IMG/VR virus record: IMGVR_UViG_3300020205_000565
Location: 1 to 64,000 of that record
Direction: 5' to 3' (one strand)
Origin: a virus
Length of the DNA: 64,000 bases
Part shown: one piece after another, positions 30,929 through 46,507 of the stretch
How positions within the stretch are numbered: the first letter of the stretch is position 1
How the letters are laid out: each line of letters opens with the position of its first letter
Position numbers and translations under genes: made by a program
The notes under the pieces: model-generated
Databases searched by the model: none
Seen by the model: the letters and a program-made list of their open reading frames with translations, nothing else
What the model was told of the DNA's origin: nothing

Positions 30929-33808
30929 TTATAGTAAACCAACTATATAACTATAAGGAACACTTCCTCCCTCTTCGAAATAGTAATTAGGATTATTTCC
31001 TACCCCTGGATCTACTGAAGCGGGCATCATACCGTTGTAAGCATTATAGAAGTTAGCATCCATAGGATTTCCCATACCTACATTACCTTTACCTTTTGTC
31101 CAAACGTTTGATAAAGGTCCGGCGTATTCTCTAGCTAAGTCTGGGTTATCTCTTAAGAACTCTGCAAACTGTTGAGCATCATTATGACTAAGCATTGCAT
31201 TTTGGTTAGCTACCATTTCTCTATTTGGAGCAAAGAATAGTTCACCGCCAGCCGCAGGATTAATTCCATATTCTGGATACATCGTATTCAGGGTTTGTGC
31301 TTTAGCTCTATTAGTAATTCTATTAGCTTCAGCTTGAGCATATGCATCACGAGCCTCACGTTTAGCGTTATCGTAGTTCTGGTTGGTTGTATTAACTTTA
31401 TCTACGTAAGCCATCATCTGGCCGGCATTAAACTTCTGAGCGTCGTTCATTATATCAGCTTGCTTGTAAGCAAATTCGTTAGCTGTTCCAACGTTAAGAT
31501 TATTATACTTACCCATTATCTTAGCAACGTTATCTGCCAAACTTCCAGATGCTCCTGCTATTCTAGCGCCTAATGATTGTGAAGATCCCGATGTACCTCT
31601 AAATGCATCGGACGTTTCTGTAAGCAAAGCATTGTTAGCTTGAATTTCTTGCTCTGGATTATAAGGAGTTGGCTCAGGTAACATAGGTTCGTATGATGAA
31701 AGAGACGGATAATATCTGTTGATATTAAACATGTTTCTTCTAGCATTACCTTCTAGTATGCGGTCCTGTATAAAGTCTGGCGTAGGTTTTCCTGTTTGAT
31801 ACCTTGGAGATTCTCCAGCAGTAGGGTCTAATAATCTTTCGGTCTCTTCTACTGTATCTTCAAGAGGATTTACTTTTCTATCGTATGTAAATGCATCAGC
31901 ATGCTCTAATCCTAATTTCTTATCATCGCTTAATCCTGGACGGAATTGATCTGGTTTAAAGAAATGTTCTACAGCATCTACATAGTTAAGATTAGGTATA
32001 ACGTTACCGTCTTTATCTTTAATCTCCCTAGCCGTTCTAACTCTCTTATTACCTTTAACAAATGCAGGTGTGTACAAGAGATCAGGATTATTAATATTAG
32101 CAGAAATATGTGGATCATTTATATCCATACCTAAAGAGTAGAACATATTTTTTCTGTTCTTTAACTTATCTTCTGCTGATGCCGCATCCCAATCATCTGC
32201 CGTCTTACCAGGATTTCTAGCTTGCCAGAAACGGTACTCATAAAACTTAGGGTCTGTATAACCAAAGAAACCTGTATTCTCAGAAGACTGTAAAGCAATC
32301 TGGTATTCTTTTTCACCAGGTACGCCTAGTACATTATCCTCAGCGCCGTAAGATAAAAACTTAGTTAGGAAATCTTTTTCTGCAGTAGTCATCTTATCAC
32401 GTGCAGCTTTAAAAATATGCCATCCTGGATCTTTATCTGCTTTGCCATCGTTGTCTGAATCCCATCTAGTAGCATGGTATTCTGCTCCTCCGGCCGCTGC
32501 TAATTTATCAAGAATTACTTTGGCTTTTTTCTTATCTTCTTCAAGATTTCCAGTATAGTTTGTTTTACCAGACTTAGTTGAAGCAATAGGTTTAGTCACA
32601 TCATACTCTTGAACTTGGTAGTACTTACCATCCTCTTCGTAAATATCTCCTTTGGTTACAGCTTCAATTTTAGGCTTAAGCTTAGTCTTATCAGCTACAG
32701 CAGGTTTAGTAACTTTCTTTACTATATACTGTTTACCGTTCTTTGTTATAAGCTTTTCTCCTTCTTGTAATGTATAGTCCTGACTAGTATTACTAGTTGA
32801 TATATTATTAATATCATTTATACGAACACCTCGGCCGTCCTCATAGTAAGTATTGCCATTAGCATCTTTACGAAGATAGATACCAGTACTTGCATCTGGT
32901 CTAGGTCCTCTGTTATTATTTGCAGCATAGGTAGGTTGATTTCGAATCTGCTCTAACAACTGAGTATAATAGTTATTATAATACTCTCGTTCAGCAGTTC
33001 TTTGTGCTCTACGCTGCATCCGTCTTTCCATTCTAGGATTATATACATCCTGTTCAGGATCAGTTTGACCTCCAGGTGCATACTGTCTTAAATGATTCAT
33101 CTGTCCCCCGTGTCTAGCCATAGGCATTTGCTGAGGCATCATTTCAGATTGTTGACCTTCCATAGCGCCTTGTTGCATAGCCATCATTTCTTCTTGCCCA
33201 GGTTGAGGTGCTCCCTCAGGCTGTGGATTCATATCTCTTGGTAAAAACATTGCGGGATCTAAGTTATACTTAGCCATGTATGGCATAGATGCTGTAGCTA
33301 TTCCTCCCGGAAATCCTTTCATTGATTCTTGGATCATAGCTAGCTTACCTAACTTAACGTTATAGTTAGCAATAACCATCTCCGCTGTATTAACTTGTAA
33401 TGCATCAGAATTAGGATCTTGTAATATCTTACGGTAAGTATTCATGTCGTACTTCTTTGCAATCTCTGCTGGAGTATAACCTCCTTTTTTTGCCGGTAAC
33501 CCAAATTCTGCAAGTAATACGTCATCCTTAATTCTCATAGATCGTGTATCACTAAAGATAAATGATTCAGGCGGGACAGCTAAAGCAACTCCCCCTTCAA
33601 AGTGACGCTTACCTCTAATGTTATAGTGTGCAGGTCCTCCTTGTTTATTAGGAATGTAAACTGTTTCGCCTCCTTCGGCTTCTAGATTAGCAGCATCCCT
33701 AGGTACTGCACTTAACGTATTACGAACTTCTACTTGTTTTTTACCAAGCTTATTCGGAATATACTGTGGGGCCATTTGGTTCCCCGTCTTTATGTTGTTA
33801 CCGTACAT
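30929..33808 (-). CDS. Cargo protein, crAss-like C1-type
   Basis: 959 aa; N-terminal EAEGGETV...GKRHFEGGV...FIFSD signature seen in crAss-like cargo proteins; N/Q/A-rich helical C-terminus; no Cys. Confidence 0.7.
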   Translation of the reverse strand: MYGNNIKTGNQMAPQYIPNKLGKKQVEVRNTLSAVPRDAANLEAEGGETVYIPNKQGGPAHYNIRGKRHFEGGVALAVPPESFIFSDTRSMRIKDDVLLAEFGLPAKKGGYTPAEIAKKYDMNTYRKILQDPNSDALQVNTAEMVIANYNVKLGKLAMIQESMKGFPGGIATASMPYMAKYNLDPAMFLPRDMNPQPEGAPQPGQEEMMAMQQGAMEGQQSEMMPQQMPMARHGGQMNHLRQYAPGGQTDPEQDVYNPRMERRMQRRAQRTAEREYYNNYYTQLLEQIRNQPTYAANNNRGPRPDASTGIYLRKDANGNTYYEDGRGVRINDINNISTSNTSQDYTLQEGEKLITKNGKQYIVKKVTKPAVADKTKLKPKIEAVTKGDIYEEDGKYYQVQEYDVTKPIASTKSGKTNYTGNLEEDKKKAKVILDKLAAAGGAEYHATRWDSDNDGKADKDPGWHIFKAARDKMTTAEKDFLTKFLSYGAEDNVLGVPGEKEYQIALQSSENTGFFGYTDPKFYEYRFWQARNPGKTADDWDAASAEDKLKNRKNMFYSLGMDINDPHISANINNPDLLYTPAFVKGNKRVRTAREIKDKDGNVIPNLNYVDAVEHFFKPDQFRPGLSDDKKLGLEHADAFTYDRKVNPLEDTVEETERLLDPTAGESPRYQTGKPTPDFIQDRILEGNARRNMFNINRYYPSLSSYEPMLPEPTPYNPEQEIQANNALLTETSDAFRGTSGSSQSLGARIAGASGSLADNVAKIMGKYNNLNVGTANEFAYKQADIMNDAQKFNAGQMMAYVDKVNTTNQNYDNAKREARDAYAQAEANRITNRAKAQTLNTMYPEYGINPAAGGELFFAPNREMVANQNAMLSHNDAQQFAEFLRDNPDLAREYAGPLSNVWTKGKGNVGMGNPMDANFYNAYNGMMPASVDPGVGNNPNYYFEEGGSVPYSYIVGLL

Positions 33809-33810
33809 AT

Positions 33811-36800
33811 TTATAGATATGAAAGTTTACCACCTCTTTTTATAATCTGGTTTATTTGATCTTCTGTCAAATATACCTCGTCTCCTTCTTTTAAGTTCTC
33901 CATCATGCTGCCGCCCATCTGAGCATAAGTATTAAATCCAGAATGGAAAGCGTCATTACCATCAGGGTTTCTCTTACCTCTACGGAAGTCACCAGATAAA
34001 ATATCATAGTTTCCTTCTGTGCTTCTCATAGGATTAAAGTTATTAGACGCTTGACTCCTTGTTTTGTACTCAGTTTCGGCATATGCTGCATCTCTTCTTT
34101 TAAGCAAGTTAGTTGCAAAGTTAATAGCTGCAAGATCTTTCTCAGGATTACGAACTTTTTTCTTTTTAAACTTTGATTCTACATCAAAGCCATCGCCCAT
34201 AGCTGTATCCTTATCTTCACTTTTCATTTTTCTTGAAAGATCACTTAAATCAGTAACTATAGGCTTTCCATTAAGGTCTTTAACGCCTAGATCTATTTTA
34301 TCTGTCGAAAAATCATGCGACATAGGTTTACCAAACATATCTGTAACACCTAGGTCAAGTTTGTTATCATATAAGCTATTCATATGATTCTGTATCATTT
34401 CTTGTGAACTAGGTAATGACCAATCCATAATAGGAGTTGTACCAGGTTGTGCAGAACCAAATGGTCCACCATCATCGTATCTTCTCATAAATCTATGTAA
34501 GGATCCGCCTTCTTTTTTAAAGTATTGAGGTGCAGTATAACCAGTAGCTGGGCTAAAGTAAGTCTGATCTATGTAGTCTTGTACAGCACCAGATCTTCCT
34601 GACCAAGCGTTATACTGAGTACCCGGTCCACCACTATTACTAGGAAAATCTGTTAGTACCCCACCCGCTAAATCATCAGTCCTAAGATTAGCATAAATAA
34701 CTTTTCTATGATCTGTTATAGAAGATGTAAATGCTTGAGGATCATCCGCATACTGTTGATTAATAAGATCTTTGTTATCCTTCCATAACTGATCAGCATT
34801 TGTTTTTAACCAACTTCTATATTCAGGATTACTAATTACTGGACTACCTTTTCCTGTATAACCTTTATCTACACCAGCAGCTCCTAACACCATTACTCTA
34901 GGATCATAACCCGCATTAAATACCTGATCCGCAGCAATCTCTCTAATTGGAGCAGGCATGTCATTAAAAGATTCCCACAGAGCTTTCTTTTTTGGATCTT
35001 TGGCCATTACCGAATCCCAATCTTGTTTTACCTTATTAGCATCAGGGTACATGAATTGTCCAGCACTTTTATCTACGGCATAGTTTTTCCAGCTTGGATC
35101 ATAGTTATCCGGAAGAGCAAGTCCCGCAGGTTTAGTGCCAAACCACTCACCTTCTGTTTTAACTATTTGATTTTGCGTTCTGTTTAAATCAAAATCAGGA
35201 GGAGTATAAGAAGGTGTTGATGGATTAGAAGGAGTTGATGGAGCCGACGGATTTTTACTAACAGTATTTCCTGGCTTTTGATTAGTACTATTAGCTGTAT
35301 TAGTACTATTAGCTGTATTAGTAGTATTAGTAGTATTAGTAGTATTAGTAGTATTAGTAGTATTAGAACTGCTACTAGGATTTGCAGTGTTATCGGCATT
35401 TCCATTATAACTAAAAGTCATTGACTTAAGTCTATTACCCGGATCCCTTGCTATACGAGTTTTAATCTCAGATACACCAAGTAACTGTGGATTACCATAA
35501 CTACCAGCTAACATCTTTTCTCTAAAGTCTTTTGTAAGTCTGTTCTTAGAGATAACTCCTAAGTTTCTACCTCTCATGCTTCCGTAAGCAGCATAGGGAT
35601 TATATCCACCGTAAGGATTATAATTGTCATAATCCTGAGTTCCTCTTGAAGATTGGGGATTATATCCTAGAATTTCCCTTGTGACAGGATCTACAGCATA
35701 TCTTACTCCGTTAATTACTGTTGTATTCTCATTAGTCGAGTTATTATGACCATCATAAAGTATATTACGATTGTCAGTTCCAATGATCTCAGATCCGTTT
35801 GGAGCAGTTTTTTTCTCTGTTTCTTTAGGAAGGTTATTTGGTTTATACCAACCCCCATTAGGGTTTTTAACATACCCTTGATCAGTAAACATTTTATCTT
35901 CTTCTGGACTACCAGTAGTAGTTAATGTATTATTAGCAGTAGTACTAGGCTCTTTATCTCCTTGATACTTTTTTAAAGCTCCTCCGTCTCTATAAGGGAT
36001 TTGCTCATAGCCAATACCTTTATTAAATCTATCTAAAGCATTTCTTTGTCGGGTATTATCTAAATTAGGAACAGACCATCCTGGTCCTTCTTTAGGGTAT
36101 ATATACTCTGTGCCAGCAGAATTATCAAGAGAATCGCTATAAGCACCTTGCATCATATCTCTAAACTGAGCACCATACTGGGGACCAACTCTATTAAATA
36201 TATTATACGCCCCTATTTGTTGTTCAGACATAGCCTCCTCATTAGCAAGATCTCTGTTGTACTTATCTAAAAACTGATTGTAGGCAGCATTTTCTGGATG
36301 CCCTAAAACATTCCTTTCGAGGTCCAAAGTACGTTTTCCATAAAGTTTATGTTTCTTCATGTCAATTCCGGAGTTATCTAAATCCACCCCATAAATGCTT
36401 TTCATAGGAAAACCATGGTAGTCTAATTCTGTCCAAGGGTAGACAGTACCATAACCATTATAAGCTTGTCTTCTAAGAAGTTCATCATTGCCATATCCTA
36501 GTCTAATAGCTTCTTTATCTTTTTCGGTTTTAGCAAAAGCCATATCATATGCCGCACCCCTATTTTGAGGATCGCGATAATCTAAAACATGACCGTAGTT
36601 AGGATCAGTTTTTCCTAGATTTGATTCTTGAAGAGCAATAGACATTAATTCTTGAGGACTCTGACCATACTCTCTAGCCGCTCTTGCAATCTCACCTATT
36701 ACGCCTGTATGATAATCACCACTTTTTAGATCCACATTTGGATTAATAGGTTTACCCGAAGTAGCATTAATAGTACGAGGGTCATTGATATGTACACGAC

Positions 36801-37686
36801 TTGGATAACTTGGTGCTTTATATTGTGGATGTTTCTTACCATAACCCCAATTAGACTTTCTATAACTATCAATATCATCGTGCCCCATTTCTAAGGCGCG
36901 TTTATATACATCTAGGTTCATTGCATTCTCAAGTACCCCACTTAAACCGTCCTGAGCTCTTGGTAAAGCTCCTCCATCTCTTTTAGTAAAGAGTAAGTCA
37001 TCTCCAAAGTTGTTAGCGTAGTTAGGATCGTTTGGTCTAAAAGGTTCTTGAGGATATGTGCTTGTAGGGGGTTGTGAGGGAGGAGTAGGTTTTTTAACGC
37101 CCGGTCTATCCCTATAGATATTCTTTTCTTTATAGTAATAATCATTAGGACCTAATGCTCCCATTCTTTGCACATAACCGGATACAGCATTTTGGCTTAA
37201 ACGATTAAGGTAGTTAGAATTTTTTGCGTATGCGTTTAAGTTTCCGGGATCATATGAATTCATAGGGTCGCTGCCCATACCCATACCATACTGAGCCATA
37301 GGCTGTTCTTGGTCTTGTTCCATGACGGCTTTCTCAAGATTTTTCTCAGCAGCATCGCGAATCTTTTGAATAAAAGTATTCATTCGATCACTATAAAAGC
37401 TCGTGTCTTCGTCCTCTTCTTCTACTGCGTTTGGATCGCCTCCTTCTTGCATCATAGGAAAACCATTGCTATAGTAATGGTCAAAGTCCTGCATAGTTTT
37501 TTCGTTTACTCCTCCTAAGTTTGCACCTGTTTGGTATTCAGGTAATCCCATAGGAGAAGCTCCCATAGATCCTACCGAACCTCCGTCAGGCATCCTTAAG
37601 AATAAATTACTTCCGCCATTCTGGAATCTTAGAGGAATCATTGTTCCTCCTTCCTTAGACTTATATCGATTGATCATTTTATTCAT
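33811..37686 (-). CDS. Modular internal virion protein with two predicted lysozyme-fold domains
   Basis: 1291 aa; SLT-like IALQESNLG...AYNGYG; GH108-like IVKTEG...DMPAPIREIAADQVFNAG...AWSGR; many xxxGG motifs; no Cys. Confidence 0.7.
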   Translation of the reverse strand: MNKMINRYKSKEGGTMIPLRFQNGGSNLFLRMPDGGSVGSMGASPMGLPEYQTGANLGGVNEKTMQDFDHYYSNGFPMMQEGGDPNAVEEEDEDTSFYSDRMNTFIQKIRDAAEKNLEKAVMEQDQEQPMAQYGMGMGSDPMNSYDPGNLNAYAKNSNYLNRLSQNAVSGYVQRMGALGPNDYYYKEKNIYRDRPGVKKPTPPSQPPTSTYPQEPFRPNDPNYANNFGDDLLFTKRDGGALPRAQDGLSGVLENAMNLDVYKRALEMGHDDIDSYRKSNWGYGKKHPQYKAPSYPSRVHINDPRTINATSGKPINPNVDLKSGDYHTGVIGEIARAAREYGQSPQELMSIALQESNLGKTDPNYGHVLDYRDPQNRGAAYDMAFAKTEKDKEAIRLGYGNDELLRRQAYNGYGTVYPWTELDYHGFPMKSIYGVDLDNSGIDMKKHKLYGKRTLDLERNVLGHPENAAYNQFLDKYNRDLANEEAMSEQQIGAYNIFNRVGPQYGAQFRDMMQGAYSDSLDNSAGTEYIYPKEGPGWSVPNLDNTRQRNALDRFNKGIGYEQIPYRDGGALKKYQGDKEPSTTANNTLTTTGSPEEDKMFTDQGYVKNPNGGWYKPNNLPKETEKKTAPNGSEIIGTDNRNILYDGHNNSTNENTTVINGVRYAVDPVTREILGYNPQSSRGTQDYDNYNPYGGYNPYAAYGSMRGRNLGVISKNRLTKDFREKMLAGSYGNPQLLGVSEIKTRIARDPGNRLKSMTFSYNGNADNTANPSSSSNTTNTTNTTNTTNTTNTANSTNTANSTNQKPGNTVSKNPSAPSTPSNPSTPSYTPPDFDLNRTQNQIVKTEGEWFGTKPAGLALPDNYDPSWKNYAVDKSAGQFMYPDANKVKQDWDSVMAKDPKKKALWESFNDMPAPIREIAADQVFNAGYDPRVMVLGAAGVDKGYTGKGSPVISNPEYRSWLKTNADQLWKDNKDLINQQYADDPQAFTSSITDHRKVIYANLRTDDLAGGVLTDFPSNSGGPGTQYNAWSGRSGAVQDYIDQTYFSPATGYTAPQYFKKEGGSLHRFMRRYDDGGPFGSAQPGTTPIMDWSLPSSQEMIQNHMNSLYDNKLDLGVTDMFGKPMSHDFSTDKIDLGVKDLNGKPIVTDLSDLSRKMKSEDKDTAMGDGFDVESKFKKKKVRNPEKDLAAINFATNLLKRRDAAYAETEYKTRSQASNNFNPMRSTEGNYDILSGDFRRGKRNPDGNDAFHSGFNTYAQMGGSMMENLKEGDEVYLTEDQINQIIKRGGKLSYL
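35281..35366. repeat. 9-nt tandem repeat (GTATTAGTA)n with 18-nt variants encoding an (NTT)n/(NTANST) linker
   Basis: Visible in the sequence; protein reads SNTTNTTNTTNTTNTTNTANSTNTANSTN. Confidence 0.9.
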
Positions 37687-37726
37687 AATGTGCTAAGATA
37701 AGCATTATACTATAAGATACTGATTT

Positions 37727-40700
37727 TTACTTGGTTTTCCAATTGTTAGGTAAGGCGTTTATTTTTACGCGTTTAGTCTCTCCTCCCTTTTTTTGTTTAG
37801 GATAAGTTGGACCATAAAGCTCACGTAACTTAGTTTGTAAATCGGATAGGTATTTTGCTTGATTAGGGGTAAGCTCCCGCATTTTTACAGTTCCTGCGGC
37901 ATCATCCCAGTATTTCATGCTGTTATTAAAATCACCTATTTCAGATAAAAGTCTTTTACGTACATTCGATACATGTTGTGTAGATGTGTAATCTAATAGA
38001 CCATGTGACATAAATGGTTTTCCAATAAATTTATCAAGCTTAACTGTAAAACCCCTTGGTGTTTCCATAGTTTGCGGTAGATTTGGATTTGTTGCACCTG
38101 TAGGAATGGTTTTCATAAAAAGTTTGTCTTGTACTTTTGTAGGGAGTAACCCTTGTATTTTTTTGGGAACTAAATCTGAAAATTTTATGAATGGTTCTAT
38201 GTCCCATATGTCATTATATTCTAAACCATTTTCCATTAATCTTTGGTTATATCCGCCCAGCAGGTAGTTATCTCTATGTAATGTTATAGCCTTGTCTAAA
38301 GGTTGCATAACCTCAGAAAACTTACTAGATCCTTCGCCTGTAAGTCCTCTAGACATCCTATCAACTACTCCTGCAAATACTTTATCTTCAGGAATATTAT
38401 AAATATCCATTCCTCTTAAAGATCCCGGTGGATAAGCAGCATGCAGGCTAGGAGCAGTATTCGCCATATTAAAAGTTCCGAATTGTTGGGGCATACCTAG
38501 ATATGCTCTCCATCCGTCACTTCTTATTTGATTTTCAGCAAGTCTTTCTTCCCAAGCAGCCTTACTCATTTGAGTTCGTAAATTATTTTTCCAACCACCC
38601 CCTCTAATATTACTTATCGTCTGCTGAACTTTATTTTGAGCTGGACCGAAACCCGAATATCCAATAGGTGTGAGATAATGATTAGCTAGTTCTGAGAATA
38701 TTGGTTTATATCCTTGTCGTTGATTAGATGTTATACCTACTTCAGCAAGTTGTCTCTGAGCAATTTCAAAATCAGTTAAACCTGCCTGTAGTCCTTCATT
38801 TTGAATTTGAGCTAATGCTCTTCTTGTATTATACGATTCCATAAAAGCCGAAGTAATAGGCATTGCCGCCTCTACTCCTGTTTTTATTATAGCTCCTGCA
38901 AAAGGCGCTATTTCTAAAGCAGTAAATAAATTCTTAGCAACAGCATCTGCATAATCAAGCGGATTACCTGTAGAGTTAGCATGTTTCCAAGGTTCCGAAA
39001 CTCCTCCGCTCATTATTGTATTTGCCCCCTTTACTCCAAATCCGTAAGTTAAAGCATTACCTGCATTAAGCCAAGGAACAGCTTTTGGGGCTGCATTTAG
39101 GAGTTGTCTTACACCAGCCCCCGTAGCTTGCATAAGGGGGGATGATGATGTTGCTCCGTAAAGCATTTCTCCAAGACCTGCTAATCCCGCTTCACCAAGA
39201 GCAACAGGGGCCATTAATAAACTTTCAAAAATAGGCACACTAGGTAAACCTGCCGGATCGTTAGGATACGGCATCTGCCAGTCCGGATCTCCCGGTTGAG
39301 GAATCCTAGGTGTTAAACCATTTACCTGATCCCATTTTGCAACAAATTCATCTTCTGCCATTCTTCTATCAGCAGCAGCATTAGCGTCAGCTTCTTCTTT
39401 AAGTTGTTTAAAATTAGCTGGTAACTTTTGTGTAGGTACTTTAGTAGACTCTGATACTGCTGTAGGTCTAGCAACTTTCCTTACATCTCCAACAAGATTT
39501 TGTTTTACAGGAGGAGCTGCATTTTTATAGTCAAGTATGTTTCTCCAATCTGGTGGGCCGTACTGAGCTTTAGGTAAACTATTTATCTTAACTCTTCTTA
39601 GATCTGGTACAGAGATACCTCCTCCGCTTTTATACTTAGGGTATTGACCGCTTTTTAACAAATCTATCTTTTGTTCTAAGTCAAGAGCTGGTCTATAGTT
39701 ACGTCCAACTGATGGAGAGGCTGAACCAAAAGGAGCAATTTGATTCAGTTCAGTCTGAAGTGCTTTTGACAAATCGTCAACATACATGGTTGATGTATAG
39801 TTTAGGTTACCGTGCGACATGAATGGCTTTCCAACAAATTTACTTACCGGAATTTTCATTTGTCTAGCTTGTGTAACAAAGAATGGTTGATTACTATAGC
39901 CGCTAGAAGTATGGCTAGGATGTGTTGAGGCACGTGATATAGGAACCTCCTTATAAAAAAGTTTTTCTTTCCATTTTTCCGGCATGACCCTTTTAACGCT
40001 TTTTGGTACCAAGGATGAAAAATTAATTGTCGGATCTAAATCCCATATATCGTTATACTGTAATCCATCTTTTGTTAGTACTTTATTATACCCTCCCATA
40101 AGTATAGGATCCCTATCTAATAATATTGGTTTATCTAAGGGGCCCATACCATCTTCGCGTAGGCCGTATCTTGGCCCAATTGTATTAGTTACTTCGTCAA
40201 AGCCGGTACCAAATATTCTGTTTTCGGGAATATTATAAATATCCATTCCTGCTAAAGATCCAGGCTTATAGGCCGGATGCATTACTGGAGCAGTATTTGC
40301 CATATTAAAAGTAAAATTTTTCTGAGGCATACCTAAATAAGTTCTCCATGCGTCATCTCTTATATTCAGATCACGATTTGCCTGACGTATAGCATTTGCT
40401 TCAGCTGCAGATGTTTCTGCAGTTATGTTTCCCATAGCTGCTCGTCTTGGAGCTTCCCATCCATTAGTTTTAATATTACTCAAGGTTTGTGCAATCTTTG
40501 ACTCACCTGCTCCGGTGTATCCAAAAGGCGTTACATACTTATTAAATAATTCTGATGCACCTGGGAAATACCCCCTACGTTGATTAGCTGTTATACCTAC
40601 ATCTGATAATTGTTTTTGTGCAATTTCAAAATCGTTTAGTCCTAGGGCCCTACCTCTTCTTTCAATTTCAGATAGTTGTCGTCCTACTTTTGTAGTATAA

Positions 40701-43700
40701 TTACTAATCTGATTAGGGAGTCTAGGTATACCCCTAACAGCAGGAACTGCTGCAGATAAATCTAAATAATTACTTACTGCGTGATCTCTATATTTAGGGT
40801 CAAATAATCCTAAGGTTTGTCCTAATAAATATTCACCCGGATGATCTACAATTTGTTCTCCTTGCCTATAAGCAGCGTTCCCTAAAAATCCTGGTAGACC
40901 TGCTGCCATATCTACTACAGAAGTCATAGGCGATCCTACACCATAACCTTCATAAGGATTATGCATTCCCATGTATCCACTTGGAATATCATAACCTCTA
41001 TTAACAGCAGCTATAGTTTCCATAGGATGGCTTATAGCAGTCCATGCTCGTCTTGCAAATTTCTCAGTATCACTTCTAGTATCTGCACTAAGTTCATCCC
41101 TGCGTTTCAGTGCCTCCGGTAAAGCATCATAAGCTGCTTTTTCTTTCATCATATCTAAAATCTGCGGACCACTTAAACCTTCCCAATCTATAGGGGCATT
41201 AAACATATTAGCAGGCCTTGTAGATTCTGCTACGGCTGACCCTGATATTAGATCCTGATTCATTTTTTTGAAATCAAAATCTGAAAAAACATTTTCATTT
41301 GCTGGGGCTGCTGATGCAGTCTTAGGTCTTGGTCGGAGATCAAATGTATGTTTATATTCATCAGGGATATTAATCCCAAGTTGAGGTTTAAAGTTAATAC
41401 TAGGAGTAGGTAGTTTCTTTTGTTGGAGATTAGCTGGAATATTTAATTTAACCTGCCCTTTAAGTTGATACTTATCTAGTTCTCCGCCTTCCTGTAATTT
41501 AAAACTTTCACTTGCTTCGTTCTTTCTCCTTTTTTGTAATCGTTTCTGTTGTTCTCTAAAGTCCTCAACTTCATTGATAGCATCCTTTACATCAGTATAC
41601 ATTTTAATATCAGGATTATAATTTACACGAGCTGTACCCCCGCTTGGACTATAAAATTGATTTTGTTGCGCATCATCTAACCATTGTGATGTAAGGGTAG
41701 CACCTAATAATTTTGAGGTATAAGTACCATCGCCATTATCTTTCTTGTAATGCAAATAAGAAACACCAGGATTACCACTATCTTGTAATGTATAATTTTC
41801 ACTGGAATCCTGAAATGTCTTAGAGTCTTCTTTAATATCTTCCGGTTGACCTTTTACTTCTACAGGTTTATCTATTACAGGTGTTTCTTGTTGTTTAGGT
41901 GTTTCTTCTTTTTTAGGAGGATTAAGTTTTGCTTTTAATTCTTTAATTGCGGAAGCCTTATCTTTATAAGGACTACCGCTTGTTCCAAACTTTTCTAAAC
42001 GTTGTATCCTTTGTTTAGTAGTAAGTTTTTTCCAAGGAGTTACTGCAAGTTTATCGTAAGTATAAATAGAAACCTGGTCACCTGATACTAGATCTTCCAT
42101 GCCCTTTAAATACTGAGGAGATATTCTAGTGTCATATAGCTGCATAGGTGAATCCATATTAAGAATAGTATTTGCGTTTTCCCTCTGTTGAAACTTATAA
42201 TCATCTAACTTTTGGTATGCGTCAGTATCCCAAACGGGGTCTTGAAGACCATTGGTTGTCATGACTTCACCATTTTTGTATTTAGTTCCAGGTATTGATT
42301 TACCAGGAATAAGTCTAGAAATTTTCATATTGTCATATATCCATTCTCTATCCTCTGGTTTAAACTGAACAGGTCCGCTATGAAAGCGTTTAGTATATCC
42401 AGCAGACTTATAAAAATTCATTATATCATTTGCATGGTTTGCTACCATACTAGAATCTGCTGCCGTTGCTAATCCTCTTTGTGCTTTAGGTAATTCACCG
42501 CCCTTCTTACCCATTGGTATAGCATATGGATCTTTTTTATTACCCGTAGATACTTGAGAGTCATGAATCTTTTTTAGTAAGTCTCCTCTACCACGAATTA
42601 ATTTGTATAGGTCAAAACTTGTACCATCGTTATTTTTAATATCAGCATCAATGATGCTTTGTATTTCCTCATTAGTATAATCTTTTACAGGATCAATATT
42701 ATTTTGCATACGCCATTCATTTAGTCTGGCTCTTATTTCAGTAGGATTATAATAATAGTCTGTTAATTTCTGCTTTTCACCAAAAAGACTTCCTAAACCA
42801 CTTGATGAGTCCATGTCCTCCTTATTAGCAAAGGGTAAATAAACACCGCTTGCTTTATTAACTTGATCGGTACCTTCAGGACTTGGTTGTTTATATTCCT
42901 GCGGAATAATATTATCTAGTACGGCATCTTCTTTATTGTATGCTGGAGTTAACATTCCAGCAGGATTTTGAGGATGATTATAATCTAAATAGTGACTCTC
43001 TTCATGAGCCATTACACTTGGATTTTTAAATCCACTTGGTGGTATGAATATAGAATTCATTAACGGTAATATGTTTACAGCGCGCGAAGCCATGTATACC
43101 CCTCCTGTATCAGGATGATCTTTGTCATACTCTTCTTGAGAACCATAAGGCTGAAAGTCTACATTTGGTAGTCCCGCAAGTCTTCTATTAGCAACTTCTG
43201 TAAATTGCGGAAGTGCTGCTCTTTTAGTATACCAGTCCCTATAAAAATCATTAACCTGATCCCTACTTTGAAAATAGTCATTTCTAAGTTCAGGATCATA
43301 ACTATTCCAATCAATGTAATTCTGTGAATGTCTTACTCCTGATGGTATTCTTGCTTCTGGTAAATCACCTGTAAATCCTAAACCCGGATATAACCCATAT
43401 GGGTTATATCTTCCAAGATAAGGAACCTCACCGTCGTATGAATATTGAATATCAGGTGATGGACCTAATTCAGCATCTACCTGACTCATAGAAGGTACGT
43501 TATCCATTCTAAAGGCAGAGGAACCATCAGGGTCATTTATGTGGCTCATGAAATAGTCAAGTCGTTTTTCCCCCAACTTCTGATCTCTAAAAAACCTATC
43601 TTGCTCTTCTAAAGGAAGTTGTTCTTTTTGAAGTGGTGTTAATTTCATAAATTTATCCCAATCATCCCACGTAGGTGTGCCCCCGTTTTGAAATTTAGCA

Positions 43701-46507
43701 GGTGTATATTTAGTATCAGGAGCTTTCGTAGGTTTAGGTGCTCCTGTAATAAACCCTTTTAAAGTTCTTCTAACTGAGCTGTTAGCATAATCTTGAATAG
43801 CATTAGTTCCTACTCTGTTATAAAGGTAGTTACCATCTTTAGATTTACTTTTATGTCTCCAAGGTTTTTCAGGATCTACAGCTCCACCATATGCATAGCC
43901 TCCTGCTTTTTTCTCCGCTTCTATTTCTTCTTGTACTTTTTTCAGTCTTGCTTTTTCTTGATCTCTTTGTTGCTGTTGATATTGTTCATAGGCAGCTTTT
44001 TCAGCATTTACCTCATCAACATTTCTCTTTTGCATTTCTAAAGCTTTTTTTCTAGTCCCGCGTCGTTCTTCAATAATATCAAGAGGTTGTCGTAAGTCAT
44101 GCCACATCCGGGCATTGGGATTAAAGTCCACACGTGCGGTACCTCCAGCTATGCTATCAAATTCTTTTTGTTGGTCAGGAGTTAAATAGTCTTCTGTTAA
44201 AACAACCCCCATGTTGCCACTTTTACCATGGACAACCTCGCCATTCTCATCATAAACTGTTCTATACAAATAAGCAGCACCTCCCCCATTACCTGTTTCA
44301 TGTAATGAATAATTTTCTCTTGCGCCACTCTGTACAGTTTGTTCTGACTTCTTCCCAGTATTACTTTTATTATCTTCCTGACCTACCTGCTCTTTTGAAT
44401 TAGAGGTTGACGTAGTGGCGCCGCTACTTGTACCTGTGTTAGAAATAACATCTGTTGTTTTACCGGAAAGAAGATTTATTACAGTCTCTCTAGGATTACT
44501 TTCAGATTTAATCTTATTAAGCAATTCTATGTTTTGCTTACCGGTACCACTATAATCTTTTATTCCGTATTTCTCAGCTAGTTTTTTCCTTTCGGAATAG
44601 CTACTTTGTTTTTTATCTAATCCTAATTCGGTTCTCATATAGTAACCTATATCAGTATTAGCGTTTGGTTCTTTTTTAACTATATTAATAGCTTCGTAAA
44701 CACCATTTCCGCTAGTTGAATTACTACGAGTTTTTGGTTTTTTGGCCCACTTATTTTGGTCATATTCAGCCGCCCCCGACTGTGTAGCAGGGTACCCAGA
44801 CTTAGCAGCATTAGCTATTGTCTGTGCATCATATACCATAGGGTTTTTACCCCATTTATTTTTTTCGTATAGCGCCGCTCCTTCTTGTGTTGCAGCATAT
44901 CCTGATTTAGCAGCATTACTTATGGTTTGTTTATCATACCCTTCAGCACGTCTTCCGCCATGAGCCATAGCAATGTCTGGATAATTTTGGATAAGTCTTG
45001 GATCATTCCAATCTTTAAATGGAGTACCGTCCAATATGCCATACTCTAATCTTTTTCTTTTATCTTCAGGACTTAGTATAGACCAAGGAGCCGTATAAAA
45101 TTTTTCATATATCGGCATGTCGACAATATCCGCGTTACCTGAAAAATATCCCGGAGCCGTACCTTGCAAACTAAAAGTAGATCTTGGATCTATTCTGATG
45201 TCGTATAATGCTTTTGGGGCATCTGTATTAAGAATTTTCTTATGGTCATCAGCATATTGTCTAAATCTATACGCGTTTTCCCATTCGGCAAGACTTTCGT
45301 TAGTTAAATTTTGTACACCTCCAATAAGATTAAGTCCTCCTGCTAGCGCCATTGCCCCAGCTTCCCCTAAACTAAGAGAAGGTATTTCAACGTCGAACTT
45401 AGGTAAGTCTATTGCAAGACCGCCCTGGCCTAAATCATCTGATCCTATAATTGTTTGTCTTCCTCCCACATGCAAAGTTGTCGGAGTAGTGGATTTATCT
45501 GCAGCTTTTTTAATCTTATCCATACCTATCATCCTCACACCATTTCTAGATCTGGCTGGTTCTTTATCTCCAACTTTAGATCCTCCATAGTAACCTTGAG
45601 AATTATACCAATCTATGACTTGTTGAGCAGAGTTTGCTACATCAAGGGAATCTTGAAAACTAGCAGGGCCACCAGGACCACCAGGGCCACCAGAGCCTCT
45701 TCCATACTGTGCTTTAGGTAATGAATGTATCTTAACTCTTTTCATTGCCCCGCCATTTTTCTTATTTGGAAAAATAGATGAGTTACCCTCTTTTATATAT
45801 TGCTCATATTGTCTAGCCTCCCCCTCTAATGTTGATGGATCTGCATATTGTAAATTTTCAGCACCAACAAAAGATAAGTGACCATTCTCGTCTGGTTCAG
45901 AACCATTTCTTAGTTTATCCCTAGGAATAAACTGTAAACTTGGATCTTGCGCAATCATGTTATCTATAGTTCTATTTACGTCATTATCTCTTCTATTATA
46001 GTAACCTTCAATTGCTTCATTAGATGCTGTAGTCAAATTAGGTCTTTTACCTAATGGACCTAGAGAACTCATTCCACCGCTTAAATTTTGCAAGTGATGT
46101 AATAGTTCATGCTGCATCCACCAATCATTATTCTCTATTGAGCCTGGTCTTGTATCTTGATTAATTTGACCTTGTACTGGGTTATATCCTGTATACTCAT
46201 CTGTTTCATTTATTCTAGGATAAACAAAATTTTGTAAAGCCTCTCTATATTGTGGAGGTAGTTGGTAGGATGGTCCTCCCATTTGAGCCATAGGAATTTC
46301 GTAGACCGAATTACCCGGAAACTGATAGTCTGCGCCAGGCATCATAAGTTTCCGGTTGCCAAAGTTATCAATACCTAGTATGGGTCCTTTTCTTAAAGGT
46401 GTTCCATCATCTTCTTTCATGGTAATCATGCCAGAAGGAATTTGAAGATAAGGTTCGTTCTTGTCCTTAGAATTTTTTTTATAACCTTTGGTCGAAACTT
46501 TAGCCAT
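37727..46507 (-). CDS. Giant modular internal virion protein (polyprotein-like) with duplicated modules, two zincins and a cell-wall-binding-like domain
   Basis: 2926 aa; HELLH (46097-46111) and HEESH (42992-43006); internal paralogous modules; GG-motif linkers; no Cys; TAATG-coupled to the muzzle gene. Confidence 0.8.
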   Translation of the reverse strand: MAKVSTKGYKKNSKDKNEPYLQIPSGMITMKEDDGTPLRKGPILGIDNFGNRKLMMPGADYQFPGNSVYEIPMAQMGGPSYQLPPQYREALQNFVYPRINETDEYTGYNPVQGQINQDTRPGSIENNDWWMQHELLHHLQNLSGGMSSLGPLGKRPNLTTASNEAIEGYYNRRDNDVNRTIDNMIAQDPSLQFIPRDKLRNGSEPDENGHLSFVGAENLQYADPSTLEGEARQYEQYIKEGNSSIFPNKKNGGAMKRVKIHSLPKAQYGRGSGGPGGPGGPASFQDSLDVANSAQQVIDWYNSQGYYGGSKVGDKEPARSRNGVRMIGMDKIKKAADKSTTPTTLHVGGRQTIIGSDDLGQGGLAIDLPKFDVEIPSLSLGEAGAMALAGGLNLIGGVQNLTNESLAEWENAYRFRQYADDHKKILNTDAPKALYDIRIDPRSTFSLQGTAPGYFSGNADIVDMPIYEKFYTAPWSILSPEDKRKRLEYGILDGTPFKDWNDPRLIQNYPDIAMAHGGRRAEGYDKQTISNAAKSGYAATQEGAALYEKNKWGKNPMVYDAQTIANAAKSGYPATQSGAAEYDQNKWAKKPKTRSNSTSGNGVYEAINIVKKEPNANTDIGYYMRTELGLDKKQSSYSERKKLAEKYGIKDYSGTGKQNIELLNKIKSESNPRETVINLLSGKTTDVISNTGTSSGATTSTSNSKEQVGQEDNKSNTGKKSEQTVQSGARENYSLHETGNGGGAAYLYRTVYDENGEVVHGKSGNMGVVLTEDYLTPDQQKEFDSIAGGTARVDFNPNARMWHDLRQPLDIIEERRGTRKKALEMQKRNVDEVNAEKAAYEQYQQQQRDQEKARLKKVQEEIEAEKKAGGYAYGGAVDPEKPWRHKSKSKDGNYLYNRVGTNAIQDYANSSVRRTLKGFITGAPKPTKAPDTKYTPAKFQNGGTPTWDDWDKFMKLTPLQKEQLPLEEQDRFFRDQKLGEKRLDYFMSHINDPDGSSAFRMDNVPSMSQVDAELGPSPDIQYSYDGEVPYLGRYNPYGLYPGLGFTGDLPEARIPSGVRHSQNYIDWNSYDPELRNDYFQSRDQVNDFYRDWYTKRAALPQFTEVANRRLAGLPNVDFQPYGSQEEYDKDHPDTGGVYMASRAVNILPLMNSIFIPPSGFKNPSVMAHEESHYLDYNHPQNPAGMLTPAYNKEDAVLDNIIPQEYKQPSPEGTDQVNKASGVYLPFANKEDMDSSSGLGSLFGEKQKLTDYYYNPTEIRARLNEWRMQNNIDPVKDYTNEEIQSIIDADIKNNDGTSFDLYKLIRGRGDLLKKIHDSQVSTGNKKDPYAIPMGKKGGELPKAQRGLATAADSSMVANHANDIMNFYKSAGYTKRFHSGPVQFKPEDREWIYDNMKISRLIPGKSIPGTKYKNGEVMTTNGLQDPVWDTDAYQKLDDYKFQQRENANTILNMDSPMQLYDTRISPQYLKGMEDLVSGDQVSIYTYDKLAVTPWKKLTTKQRIQRLEKFGTSGSPYKDKASAIKELKAKLNPPKKEETPKQQETPVIDKPVEVKGQPEDIKEDSKTFQDSSENYTLQDSGNPGVSYLHYKKDNGDGTYTSKLLGATLTSQWLDDAQQNQFYSPSGGTARVNYNPDIKMYTDVKDAINEVEDFREQQKRLQKRRKNEASESFKLQEGGELDKYQLKGQVKLNIPANLQQKKLPTPSINFKPQLGINIPDEYKHTFDLRPRPKTASAAPANENVFSDFDFKKMNQDLISGSAVAESTRPANMFNAPIDWEGLSGPQILDMMKEKAAYDALPEALKRRDELSADTRSDTEKFARRAWTAISHPMETIAAVNRGYDIPSGYMGMHNPYEGYGVGSPMTSVVDMAAGLPGFLGNAAYRQGEQIVDHPGEYLLGQTLGLFDPKYRDHAVSNYLDLSAAVPAVRGIPRLPNQISNYTTKVGRQLSEIERRGRALGLNDFEIAQKQLSDVGITANQRRGYFPGASELFNKYVTPFGYTGAGESKIAQTLSNIKTNGWEAPRRAAMGNITAETSAAEANAIRQANRDLNIRDDAWRTYLGMPQKNFTFNMANTAPVMHPAYKPGSLAGMDIYNIPENRIFGTGFDEVTNTIGPRYGLREDGMGPLDKPILLDRDPILMGGYNKVLTKDGLQYNDIWDLDPTINFSSLVPKSVKRVMPEKWKEKLFYKEVPISRASTHPSHTSSGYSNQPFFVTQARQMKIPVSKFVGKPFMSHGNLNYTSTMYVDDLSKALQTELNQIAPFGSASPSVGRNYRPALDLEQKIDLLKSGQYPKYKSGGGISVPDLRRVKINSLPKAQYGPPDWRNILDYKNAAPPVKQNLVGDVRKVARPTAVSESTKVPTQKLPANFKQLKEEADANAAADRRMAEDEFVAKWDQVNGLTPRIPQPGDPDWQMPYPNDPAGLPSVPIFESLLMAPVALGEAGLAGLGEMLYGATSSSPLMQATGAGVRQLLNAAPKAVPWLNAGNALTYGFGVKGANTIMSGGVSEPWKHANSTGNPLDYADAVAKNLFTALEIAPFAGAIIKTGVEAAMPITSAFMESYNTRRALAQIQNEGLQAGLTDFEIAQRQLAEVGITSNQRQGYKPIFSELANHYLTPIGYSGFGPAQNKVQQTISNIRGGGWKNNLRTQMSKAAWEERLAENQIRSDGWRAYLGMPQQFGTFNMANTAPSLHAAYPPGSLRGMDIYNIPEDKVFAGVVDRMSRGLTGEGSSKFSEVMQPLDKAITLHRDNYLLGGYNQRLMENGLEYNDIWDIEPFIKFSDLVPKKIQGLLPTKVQDKLFMKTIPTGATNPNLPQTMETPRGFTVKLDKFIGKPFMSHGLLDYTSTQHVSNVRKRLLSEIGDFNNSMKYWDDAAGTVKMRELTPNQAKYLSDLQTKLRELYGPTYPKQKKGGETKRVKINALPNNWKTK
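44735..44938 (-). repeat. Two-copy 35-aa tandem repeat in the 2926-aa protein
   Basis: YDKQTISNAAKSGYAATQEGAALYEKNKWGKNP vs YDAQTIANAAKSGYPATQSGAAEYDQNKWAKKP. Confidence 0.9.

Follow-up and report, generated by a model that had tools for sequence, protein, structure and literature searches.

The 64,000-nt window that we describe here is the first 64 kb of the 82-kb virus record IMGVR_UViG_3300020205_000565, itself about 68% complete, and it contains a block of very large genes in which a short peptide ending in Gly-Gly recurs. Every gene of the window is encoded on the - strand. The block starts with a muzzle protein gene (Table 1), downstream of which the order is proteins of 2926, 1291, 959 and 1097 aa and then giants of 1877, 4552 and 1917 aa; families of the ring protein and of the crassvirus capsid are found nearby or in a complete relative. 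The 2926-, 1291- and 959-aa proteins, which we will refer to as cargo proteins, are probably packed into the particle and injected. Searches with hmmscan assign none of the three to a Pfam family (0 at E ≤ 0.01), and PHROGs provides no family for them except for a short peptidoglycan-binding-like stretch at residues 628–699 of the 2926-aa protein. Likewise, PDB sequence searches with the profile of the 959-aa family and with the other two proteins return nothing, and GenBank phages give no match to the 2926-aa gene in a DNA search or to the 1291- and 959-aa proteins in protein searches.

In one branch of crAss-like phages the Gly-Gly peptide occurs lineage-wide at the junctions and ends of the variable cargo proteins, which are encoded between the muzzle gene and the conserved 1097-aa gene. 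Its unit is the end of a folded module, namely a short hydrophobic strand with Pro, then A/M, Q/R/K, any residue and G-G, and it is followed by a flexible linker and often by a basic amphipathic strand and a second unit. Refined on related loci, the motif reads [LIM]-P-x-[AMY]-[QRK]-x-G-G-[MYSF]-[IPLV] (about 13–14 bits), and the basic strand to which it is often coupled reads (K/R)-V-(K/R)-I-x-x-L-P. An earlier note on this DNA had described the element as a basic-x-x-GG motif. All of the copies listed there are present in the 2926-, 1291- and 959-aa proteins, and the nine positions given for the 2926-aa protein are exact, each falling on the final base of the second Gly codon (- strand). The recurrent GG unit is thus real, but 'basic' is a loose description, as the position three residues upstream of the first Gly is Q, R or K within a sharper peptide. 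The LPKAQYG sequence that had been set apart as a second element is also present, but it is not separate, since a matrix trained on orthologues of the 959-aa protein alone finds LPKAQxG as the same unit as x-x-x-GG.

For this orthologue-only matrix we trained on 24 sequences orthologous to the 959-aa protein and left the window out. Over all open reading frames (ORFs) of the 82-kb record it reaches at least 8 bits in the three cargo proteins only, the motif being absent at this threshold from the muzzle protein, the 1097-aa protein and the polymerase-associated giants. Its top matches outside the training site are GFPMMQEGG (16.2 bits) and EQPMAQYG (21.7 bits) in the 1291-aa protein, and it also picks EIPMAQMGG and ELPKAQRG in the 2926-aa protein. 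When the refined matrix is run over all six frames of the record, 16 matches reach at least 9 bits, 14 of which are in frame in the three cargo ORFs, so that the matrix scan which the earlier note had suggested places the motif above background; the 4552-aa protein has a single isolated match of 10.5 bits with one Gly, and the small basic ORFs near the window's two ends stay below 9 bits. Among the papers searched, none describes the peptide and none ties crAss-like phages to Gly-Gly or diglycine motifs.

Table 1. The muzzle gene, the three cargo proteins and their Gly-Gly units (window positions; residue numbers refer to the protein named above each group)
Feature	Positions	Strand	Basis
Muzzle protein gene, 1781 aa, start of cargo block	46507..51852	-	Pfam crAss_MUZ, E 4.4e-29; no matrix match of at least 9 bits
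2926-aa cargo protein, first slot after muzzle gene	37727..46507	-	translation
Slot-1 N-terminal domain, residues 1-72; last strand VYEIP is first half of motif	46292..46507	-	alignment and AlphaFold
Motif EIPMAQMGGPS, GG 77-78	46268..46300	-	19.2 bits
Junction FPNKKNGG + AM + KRVKIHSLPKAQYG, residues 246-269, then GGPGGPGGP spacer	45701..45772	-	sequence
Weak copy IAMAHGG, GG 517-518, end of module A	44954..44974	-	below matrix threshold
Double GG KKAGGYAYGG, 869-875, after coiled coil ending module B	43883..43912	-	below matrix threshold
Motif TPAKFQNGG, GG 942-943, ahead of zincin-like module 2	43679..43705	-	9.3 bits
Double unit AIPMGKKGG + ELPKAQRG, 1329-1345, end of zincin-like module 2	42473..42523	-	11.0 and 14.6 bits
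FKLQEGG + ELDKYQLKG, 1669-1684, end of module B'	41456..41503	-	9.9 bits
Junction QYPKYKSGGG + ISVPDLR + RVKINSLPKAQYG, 2288-2317, between modules C and C'	39557..39646	-	13.5 bits
C-terminal tail TYPKQKKGG + ET + KRVKINALPNNWKTK, then stop codon	37730..37807	-	12.2 bits
1291-aa cargo protein, second slot	33811..37686	-	translation
N-terminal cluster, three GG units in residues 8-36: KSKEGG, LRFQNGG, LRMPDGG	37579..37665	-	sequence
GLPEYQTG (47-54), GFPMMQEGG (75-83), EQPMAQYG (127-134)	37276..37548	-	12.3, 13.5, 19.8 bits (refined matrix)
TKRDGG + ALPRAQDG, 234-247	36946..36987	-	DNA repeat D18 with 35974-35996
IPYRDGG + ALKKYQG, 563-576	35959..36000	-	sequence
YFKKEGG + SLHRFMRRYDDGG, 1055-1074	34465..34524	-	kept in G002
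Motif FNTYAQMGG (1251-1259) + C-terminal mini-domain ending RGGKLSYL	33814..33936	-	18.0 bits
959-aa cargo protein, third slot	30929..33808	-	family of >1330 proteins
Paired motif QMPMARHGG + QMNHLRQYAPGG, 227-247, predicted disordered linker	33068..33130	-	alignment and AlphaFold
C-terminal tail YYFEEGG + SVPYSYIVGLL, then stop codon	30932..30985	-	conservation

The 2926-aa protein consists of nine modules in the order N-domain, zincin-like 1, A, B, zincin-like 2, A', B', C and C'. A/A', B/B' and C/C' are internal duplications (413–499/1437–1516, 719–834/1559–1666 and 1934–2312/2556–2920), and each of the motifs listed for the protein lies at the end of a duplicated or zincin-like module. The strand-plus-motif peptide at residues 246–269 is found in relatives as the N-terminus of separate proteins, and the tail type GG-x-x-K-(R/K)-V-K-I-K-S-L-P-x-N-W-K, which resembles the tail of the 2926-aa protein, ends the first slot protein in 7 related loci. 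At the DNA level the junction between modules C and C' (39557–39646) forms repeat D5 with positions 45702–45740, at 85% identity over 39 nt.

The relation of the peptide to a fold is clearest at the N-terminus of this protein. F63, V68, E70 and P72 are invariant in an alignment of 35 sequences, and from these sequences AlphaFold models residues 1–120 with a small beta domain at 1–72 (predicted local distance difference test, pLDDT, 86–95) and with pLDDT below 50 from residue 76, at M-G-G. As VYEIP is the last confident strand, the first half of the motif would, in this model, close the fold and the GG open the linker. Fold searches with the N-domain model gave nothing better than E 0.03 in Foldseek and Z 4.7 in VIA.

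The two zincin-like modules carry HExxH sequences seen by eye, HELLH at about residue 134 (45900–46275, - strand) and HEESH at about residue 1170 (42500–43680, - strand). Pfam recognises neither module; ESM Atlas provides only weak leads for the second (0.82; LPD23 at 0.79), and homologues of the first occur in 5 related loci. Between residues ~524 and 590 there are two tandem 35-residue repeats of the YDKQTISNAAKSGY..EKNKWGK type (44736–44938, - strand; 72% identical as DNA). The stretch at 628–699 that follows them matches PHROG families annotated as L-alanyl-D-glutamate peptidase or ferredoxin, and is probably a small wall-binding domain.

In the 959-aa family P-M-A-[RKQ]-[YFH]-G-G is conserved down to 32% identity, within an otherwise unalignable Q/E/M-rich stretch, and G234 is invariant in 83 sequences. 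AlphaFold, run on the same 83-sequence alignment, gives pLDDT below 50 over residues 192–256, which include both motif copies and lie between confident domains, and again over the C-terminal residues 923–959 with the last GG, where the closer subfamily keeps GG-x-V-P-[FY]-x-Y-x-V-G. The N-terminal domain of this protein (33230–33720, - strand, residues ~30–190; pLDDT ~90) has E43, E45, E48, H69, G72, G73 and S86 invariant in the 83 sequences, and this predicted domain could be catalytic or could be an anchor of the family. The full 959-aa model retrieves generic long-helix matches only (Foldseek best E 0.6; VIA best Z 8.6, over residues 708–794), the N-terminal domain not having been searched alone. 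Orthologues of the 1291-aa protein are found in G002 (54% identity) and G004; a 9-nt tandem array at 35263–35388 (- strand, residues ~767–808) encodes an Asn/Thr-rich low-complexity run of NTT/NTA/NST type between two of its modules.

A profile search of IMG/VR yields 78 loci, 68 of them non-redundant, with a constant gene order of muzzle, one to three hypervariable slot proteins (236–2473 aa where complete), 959-type, 1097-type and 1877-type. Across the 68 loci we express matrix hits per 1000 aa, counting matches of at least 9 bits for the orthologue-only matrix and of at least 11 bits for the refined one. Slot proteins score 0.89 with the orthologue-only matrix (0.09 when shuffled) and 2.97 with the refined matrix, a rate that is partly circular because slot proteins trained the latter, although the controls and the orthologue-only matrix are not circular. 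For the 959-type the two rates are 1.86 and 2.56, whereas the 1097-type (0.03 and 0), the 1877-type (0.02 and 0) and the muzzle protein (0 and 0.05) have next to none. At least one motif copy is present in 153 of the 162 complete slot or 959-type proteins, with a mean of 3.1 copies.

The same loci bear on where the motif lies and on what surrounds it. Fused and split gene versions interchange freely among them, and modules are swapped like cassettes, in agreement with the plug-and-play acquisition of domains that the earlier note had envisaged. The ends of internal BLAST alignments are enriched 1.7-fold within 20 residues of a motif, which is to be taken as a trend only because the ends are not independent; together with the ends of the duplications and the points at which the AlphaFold models leave a domain for a linker, it bears out the placing of the motif at module boundaries.

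The termini of the relatives' proteins tell us most about the internal junctions. The N-terminus M-x-(K/R)-V-(K/R)-I-x-x-L-P-x-A-[RQK]-x-G starts 46 of 55 distinct 959-type proteins; in the window this peptide is internal, at residues 255–269 (KRVKIHSLPKAQYG) and 2303–2317 of the 2926-aa protein. In the slot just upstream of the 959-type many proteins start MKK(R/K)VRIYKA..G, and the M-x-(K/R)-V type of start is found at 0 of 46 N-termini in the 1097-type and 0 of 46 in the 1877-type. At the other end, the last 30 residues contain GG in 51/52, 42/55 and 47/56 of the cargo C-termini (the last figure being the 959 family), and in 0/40 muzzle, 0/21 1877-type and 5/54 1097-type controls. Most slot proteins end in a mini-domain, E-L-T-x-E-E-I...G-(G/Y)-x-(I/V)-E-(Y/E)-L, which the 1291-aa protein also has; written as E-x-x-L-T-x-E-E-I...GG-x-x-E-Y-L, it closes slot proteins at most of the 68 loci. 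Because its junction peptides are the termini of separate proteins elsewhere, either the 2926-aa giant links cargo units covalently into one chain or the relatives are split versions of it. It is best read as several cargo units joined end to end, the terminal peptides of which have been kept by selection.

Some of the payloads can be named. Pfam searches with 42 slot proteins of relatives find SET (4 of 42), phage lysozyme (3), Amidase_2, SLT, PG_binding_1, YkuD and ART-PolyVal. In loci L044, L049, L054, L058, L061, L063 and L064 the first cargo protein has a SET domain (protein lysine methyltransferase-like) at its N-terminus or close to it, and an ART-PolyVal ADP-ribosyltransferase domain is present in one slot protein; judged by their domain matches, both kinds of module look like injected effectors.

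Searches with the muzzle protein also match cultured phages, namely Leptolyngbya phage Lbo-JY46, Cellulophaga phages phi4:1 and phi17:2 and the Flavobacterium FPSV phages. Gp040 of phi4:1 (895 aa), like gp041 a virion protein by tandem mass spectrometry according to the GenBank record, has the slot-1 N-domain (hhalign 96%, E 4.5e-9), ending EVPNFQAGG, and five further [FYL]-[QK]-x-GG sites, one of them four residues from the C-terminus. Of the Lbo-JY46 proteins downstream of the muzzle, the first has the N-domain (hhalign probability 98.4%, E 4.9e-15), closing with MLQAGG, the second has FQQGG and the mini-domain at its end, and the third starts MKIRIIGLPKAQIG. The two proteins after the muzzle of FPSV-S29 give no matrix match. 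The motif is thus carried by cultured phi4:1 and Lbo-JY46, which can serve as test beds.

The position of the motif-bearing genes recalls crAss001, in which the cargo proteins C1 (gp45) and C2 (gp46) are followed by the polymerase-associated virion proteins gp47, gp49 and gp50 (PMC10172136). As in the window and the 68 loci, the C1 and C2 genes come immediately downstream of the muzzle gene and precede the polymerase-associated giants, and the two proteins are packaged in the virion and thought to be ejected first (PMC10172136). The cargo proteins of the window differ from them in being far larger and modular, and we detect no relation to gp45 or gp46 by BLAST or hhalign (probability 0.1% for the 959-aa family against gp45). 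The N-terminus of C1 is basic, with GG at 20–21, [FY]-GG-x-L recurs at 209, 332, 427 and 562, and the C-terminal tail is basic and rich in GG; gp45 contains one refined-matrix site, of 11.3 bits. The pieces of C1 resolved by electron cryo-microscopy (cryo-EM) start at 214 and 425, next to GG 209–210 and 427–428; the cryo-EM model that spans residues 425–552 is presented with no processing or motif described (PMC10172136). As this model starts at 425 and the GG is at 427–428, the Gly428–Trp429 bond is intact in virions. The 1097-type, 1877-type, 4552-aa and 1917-aa proteins lack the motif though their crAss001 counterparts are packaged, and the motif therefore belongs to one cargo class; it does not serve as the general packaging tag that the earlier note had offered as one option. 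By analogy with what has been proposed for crAss001 C1, we suspect that the motif-bearing class sits on the portal–tail axis and leaves first.

The other option had been a polyprotein cleavage code. Maturation sites of the form Gly-Gly-X, cut before X, are used by adenovirus (adenain, Peptidase_C5) and by African swine fever virus (ASFV; a clan CE protease). The motif resembles these in its recurrent GG with a hydrophobic residue a few positions upstream and in its occurrence in virion protein precursors, but it has hydrophobic and Pro positions upstream of P4 and a constrained P2', and no clan CE protease was found. Sites of the T4 and phiKZ type end in Glu (L/I-x-E, A/S/G-x-E) and need a phage-encoded prohead protease. 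Those systems, in T4 and in phiKZ-like or SPN3US giant phages, likewise have short conserved peptides on internal or ejected head proteins that govern loading and lie at the boundaries of mature products (PMC5694885, PMC10052503). The motif here has G-G at its end instead, and we detect no prohead protease: PF04586 is without a match, other prohead protease families not having been searched one by one. A short conserved N-terminal peptide, as on packaged proteins of the T4 type, is nonetheless present in the 46 of 55 959-type relatives described above and is internal in the window. Double-glycine leaders, which are cut by the C39 peptidase domains of ABC exporters, offer another likeness, as the N-terminal peptides of relatives are ~13–17 residues long, many ending in G-G, ahead of the protein body; the consensus here is however basic and amphipathic with L-P-x-A, C39 has no match, and in the window the motif is mostly internal or C-terminal. 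The cargo proteins also resemble the polyvalent proteins of phages and conjugative elements in being very large injected proteins with many unrelated effector domains (ART-PolyVal, lysozyme, amidase and SET in relatives). Zincin-like modules are embedded in the 2926-aa protein, but such modules are sporadic across loci and those of the window are missed by Pfam. Iyer et al. 2017 propose that polyvalent proteins are processed into units by autoprocessing (PMC5512222); the word 'linker' does not occur in that paper, and none of 12 passages from it names a junction peptide.

Profiles for Ulp1 (Peptidase_C48, PF02902), adenain (C5, PF00770), C39 (PF03412) and the HK97-type protease (S78, PF04586) have no match at E ≤ 1 in the record (G000) or in the complete 120-kb relatives G001 and G004. 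Since a virus that cuts at GG is expected to encode its own protease, and none was found, cutting at Gly-Gly is not supported as the earlier note stated it. Pfam finds no peptidase family in the 42 slot proteins of relatives, and among the 25 of 44 families listed for 91 ORFs of G001 no protease apart from DUF2201_N, a putative metallopeptidase with a VWA-like partner, DUF2201. The embedded zincin was considered as a general protease and rejected as sporadic: only 13 of 38 complete loci have an HExxH within the cargo interval, although all 38 carry motifs, and homologues of the first module are confined to the 5 loci mentioned. In the window itself, Pfam finds no protease family in the 16 small ORFs; one of these matches Ferritin and Rubrerythrin, two match FN3 and one VWA, a ferritin-like protein being unusual inside a phage structural region. 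We also note a ClpS adaptor homologue (PF02617, E 6.5e-16) in G001 (loci L013–L015). The residue that follows G-G in the motif is enriched for M, Y, W and F, so that cutting, were it to occur, would leave some products with a first residue of N-degron type; a link to ClpS is speculative. The head module of Flavobacterium phage FPSV-S29 (L094, 7831–8106) has a 91-aa ORF called 'peptidase' in its GenBank record, without the GG motif.

We propose, with a probability of about 0.45, that the peptides act uncut, as repeated docking handles or hinges with a partner. Such handles would tie differing payloads (cell-wall hydrolases, zincin-like modules, SET, ADP-ribosyltransferase) to one conserved partner in the particle, and a module bearing a handle would be loaded and later ejected in order. 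In its favour we count the specificity of the matrix for the slot proteins and the coverage of 153 of 162 proteins, the presence of the peptides at N- and C-termini in relatives but hardly in control families, the position of the motif in or at the start of low-confidence linkers, the copies too closely spaced for useful cutting, the failure to find a GG-type or prohead protease, and the intact bond in crAss001 C1. Several points weigh against this proposal. Docking is something that we purely infer, and the candidate partner could be the portal, tail-barrel or muzzle lumen, or the handles might bind each other. The resemblance to crAss001 C1 is weak, being positional and in flavour only: hmmscan gives no match to PF25725, the C1 family, in the three cargo proteins, and in 150 diverse PF25725 representatives (used because gp45 homologues from a word-index search are 96–100% identical and useless for conservation) the refined matrix is barely enriched, with 0.14 hits per 1000 aa against 0.08 when shuffled. 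Moreover, the layout of the motif is like that of a protease site, the sequence information lying mostly upstream of GG in about seven informative residues with a weak prime side. When sites are chosen by their upstream side only, the first residue after GG is depleted for Pro (0.36-fold) and for Lys/Arg (0.15–0.2-fold). The GG is separated from the basic strand by 2 residues at internal junctions and Met1 from the strand by 1–3 at true N-termini, so that a cut at GG would recreate a native-like N-terminus. A host protease, or a viral one of unrecognised fold, may cut at GG.

These last points are what gives weight to a cleavage code, in which the GG units would be maturation sites, or the ends of N-terminal targeting propeptides, cut in the head or after ejection by a host protease or a viral one that we fail to recognise. 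Cleavage would set the modules free, and the basic head peptides would be removed or exposed by it, with analogues in the capsid-targeting sequences of T4, the head proteins of phiKZ/SPN3US and the Gly-Gly sites of adenovirus and ASFV. The heads of relatives that end in G-G or a single G at about residues 13–17 do resemble short leaders, and the free interchange of fused and split genes and the zincin-like HExxH modules, set beside the autoprocessing proposed for polyvalent proteins (PMC5512222), are also in its favour. We nevertheless find it rather unlikely, given the outcome of the protease searches and the mismatch between sporadic HExxH and ubiquitous motifs. Some copies are 8–12 residues apart, with three in residues 8–36 of the 1291-aa protein, so that cutting would give useless fragments of about 10 residues. 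P2' is also constrained, to P/I/M/L/V, a restriction to be expected of a binding motif no less than of a protease site, and the crAss001 study reports no processing and has Gly428–Trp429 inside its C1 model (PMC10172136). Still a little more doubtful is the specific form in which the diglycine is a processing code for an unrecognised viral or host protease, each cut recreating a basic head peptide and one giant gene thereby yielding several targeted effectors.

Neither partner nor cut would be needed if the peptide were passive punctuation, a strand and Gly-Gly turn favoured as a domain end and as a flexible hinge for threading through the tail unfolded. The N-domain model, in which the first half of the motif forms the last strand and confidence drops at G-G, is consistent with this, and tandem units such as LRFQNGG-SNLFLRMPDGG look like strand-turn-strand. 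A hinge, however, would not need ~13 bits conserved in otherwise unalignable linkers down to 32% identity, nor be confined to three packaged proteins while equally long polymerase-associated giants lack it, and we hold this explanation to be improbable. At the DNA level, a boundary sequence promoting cassette exchange, with the peptide irrelevant, would explain why junctions persist while modules shuffle between relatives and why short repeats link three junction pairs (D5, D11 and D18, at 85%, 75% and 87% identity). We think this very improbable, as the DNA identity over 23–39 nt is no higher than the shared amino acids predict, the motif is kept as protein at 32–60% identity with differing residues at its degenerate positions, and it is also found at true protein termini. 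Least credible of all is that Gly-rich linkers throw up GG by chance of composition. The GG dipeptide is indeed only 1.3–1.7 times more frequent than expected in the three cargo proteins, so that bare GG counts prove little; about half of their 52 GG sites are non-motif sites, and anchoring on every GG site, which we tried and rejected, diluted the signal. For the refined motif, though, a chance origin is refuted by the placing of 14 of 16 six-frame matches in three ORFs, a 10-fold to more than 50-fold excess over shuffled sequence and a rate close to zero in the control proteins encoded at these loci.

The Crassvirales, with their environmental relatives, belong to the most abundant phages, and they load and eject protein by the megadalton. 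In dozens of divergent genomes the peptide marks the payload modules encoded by three neighbouring genes, and it offers a direct, mutable entry point to which part of the virion holds the cargo, in which order the cargo exits and whether the giant proteins act whole or in pieces. A diglycine code, if true, would be the phage answer to the polyprotein strategy of adenovirus and ASFV and would imply a new protease. The handle that we favour might be tried as a tag to load foreign proteins into phage particles of laboratory strains, and the motif provides a simple sequence rule for spotting injected effectors, such as SET, ADP-ribosyltransferase and cell-wall hydrolase modules, in metagenomic phage genomes.

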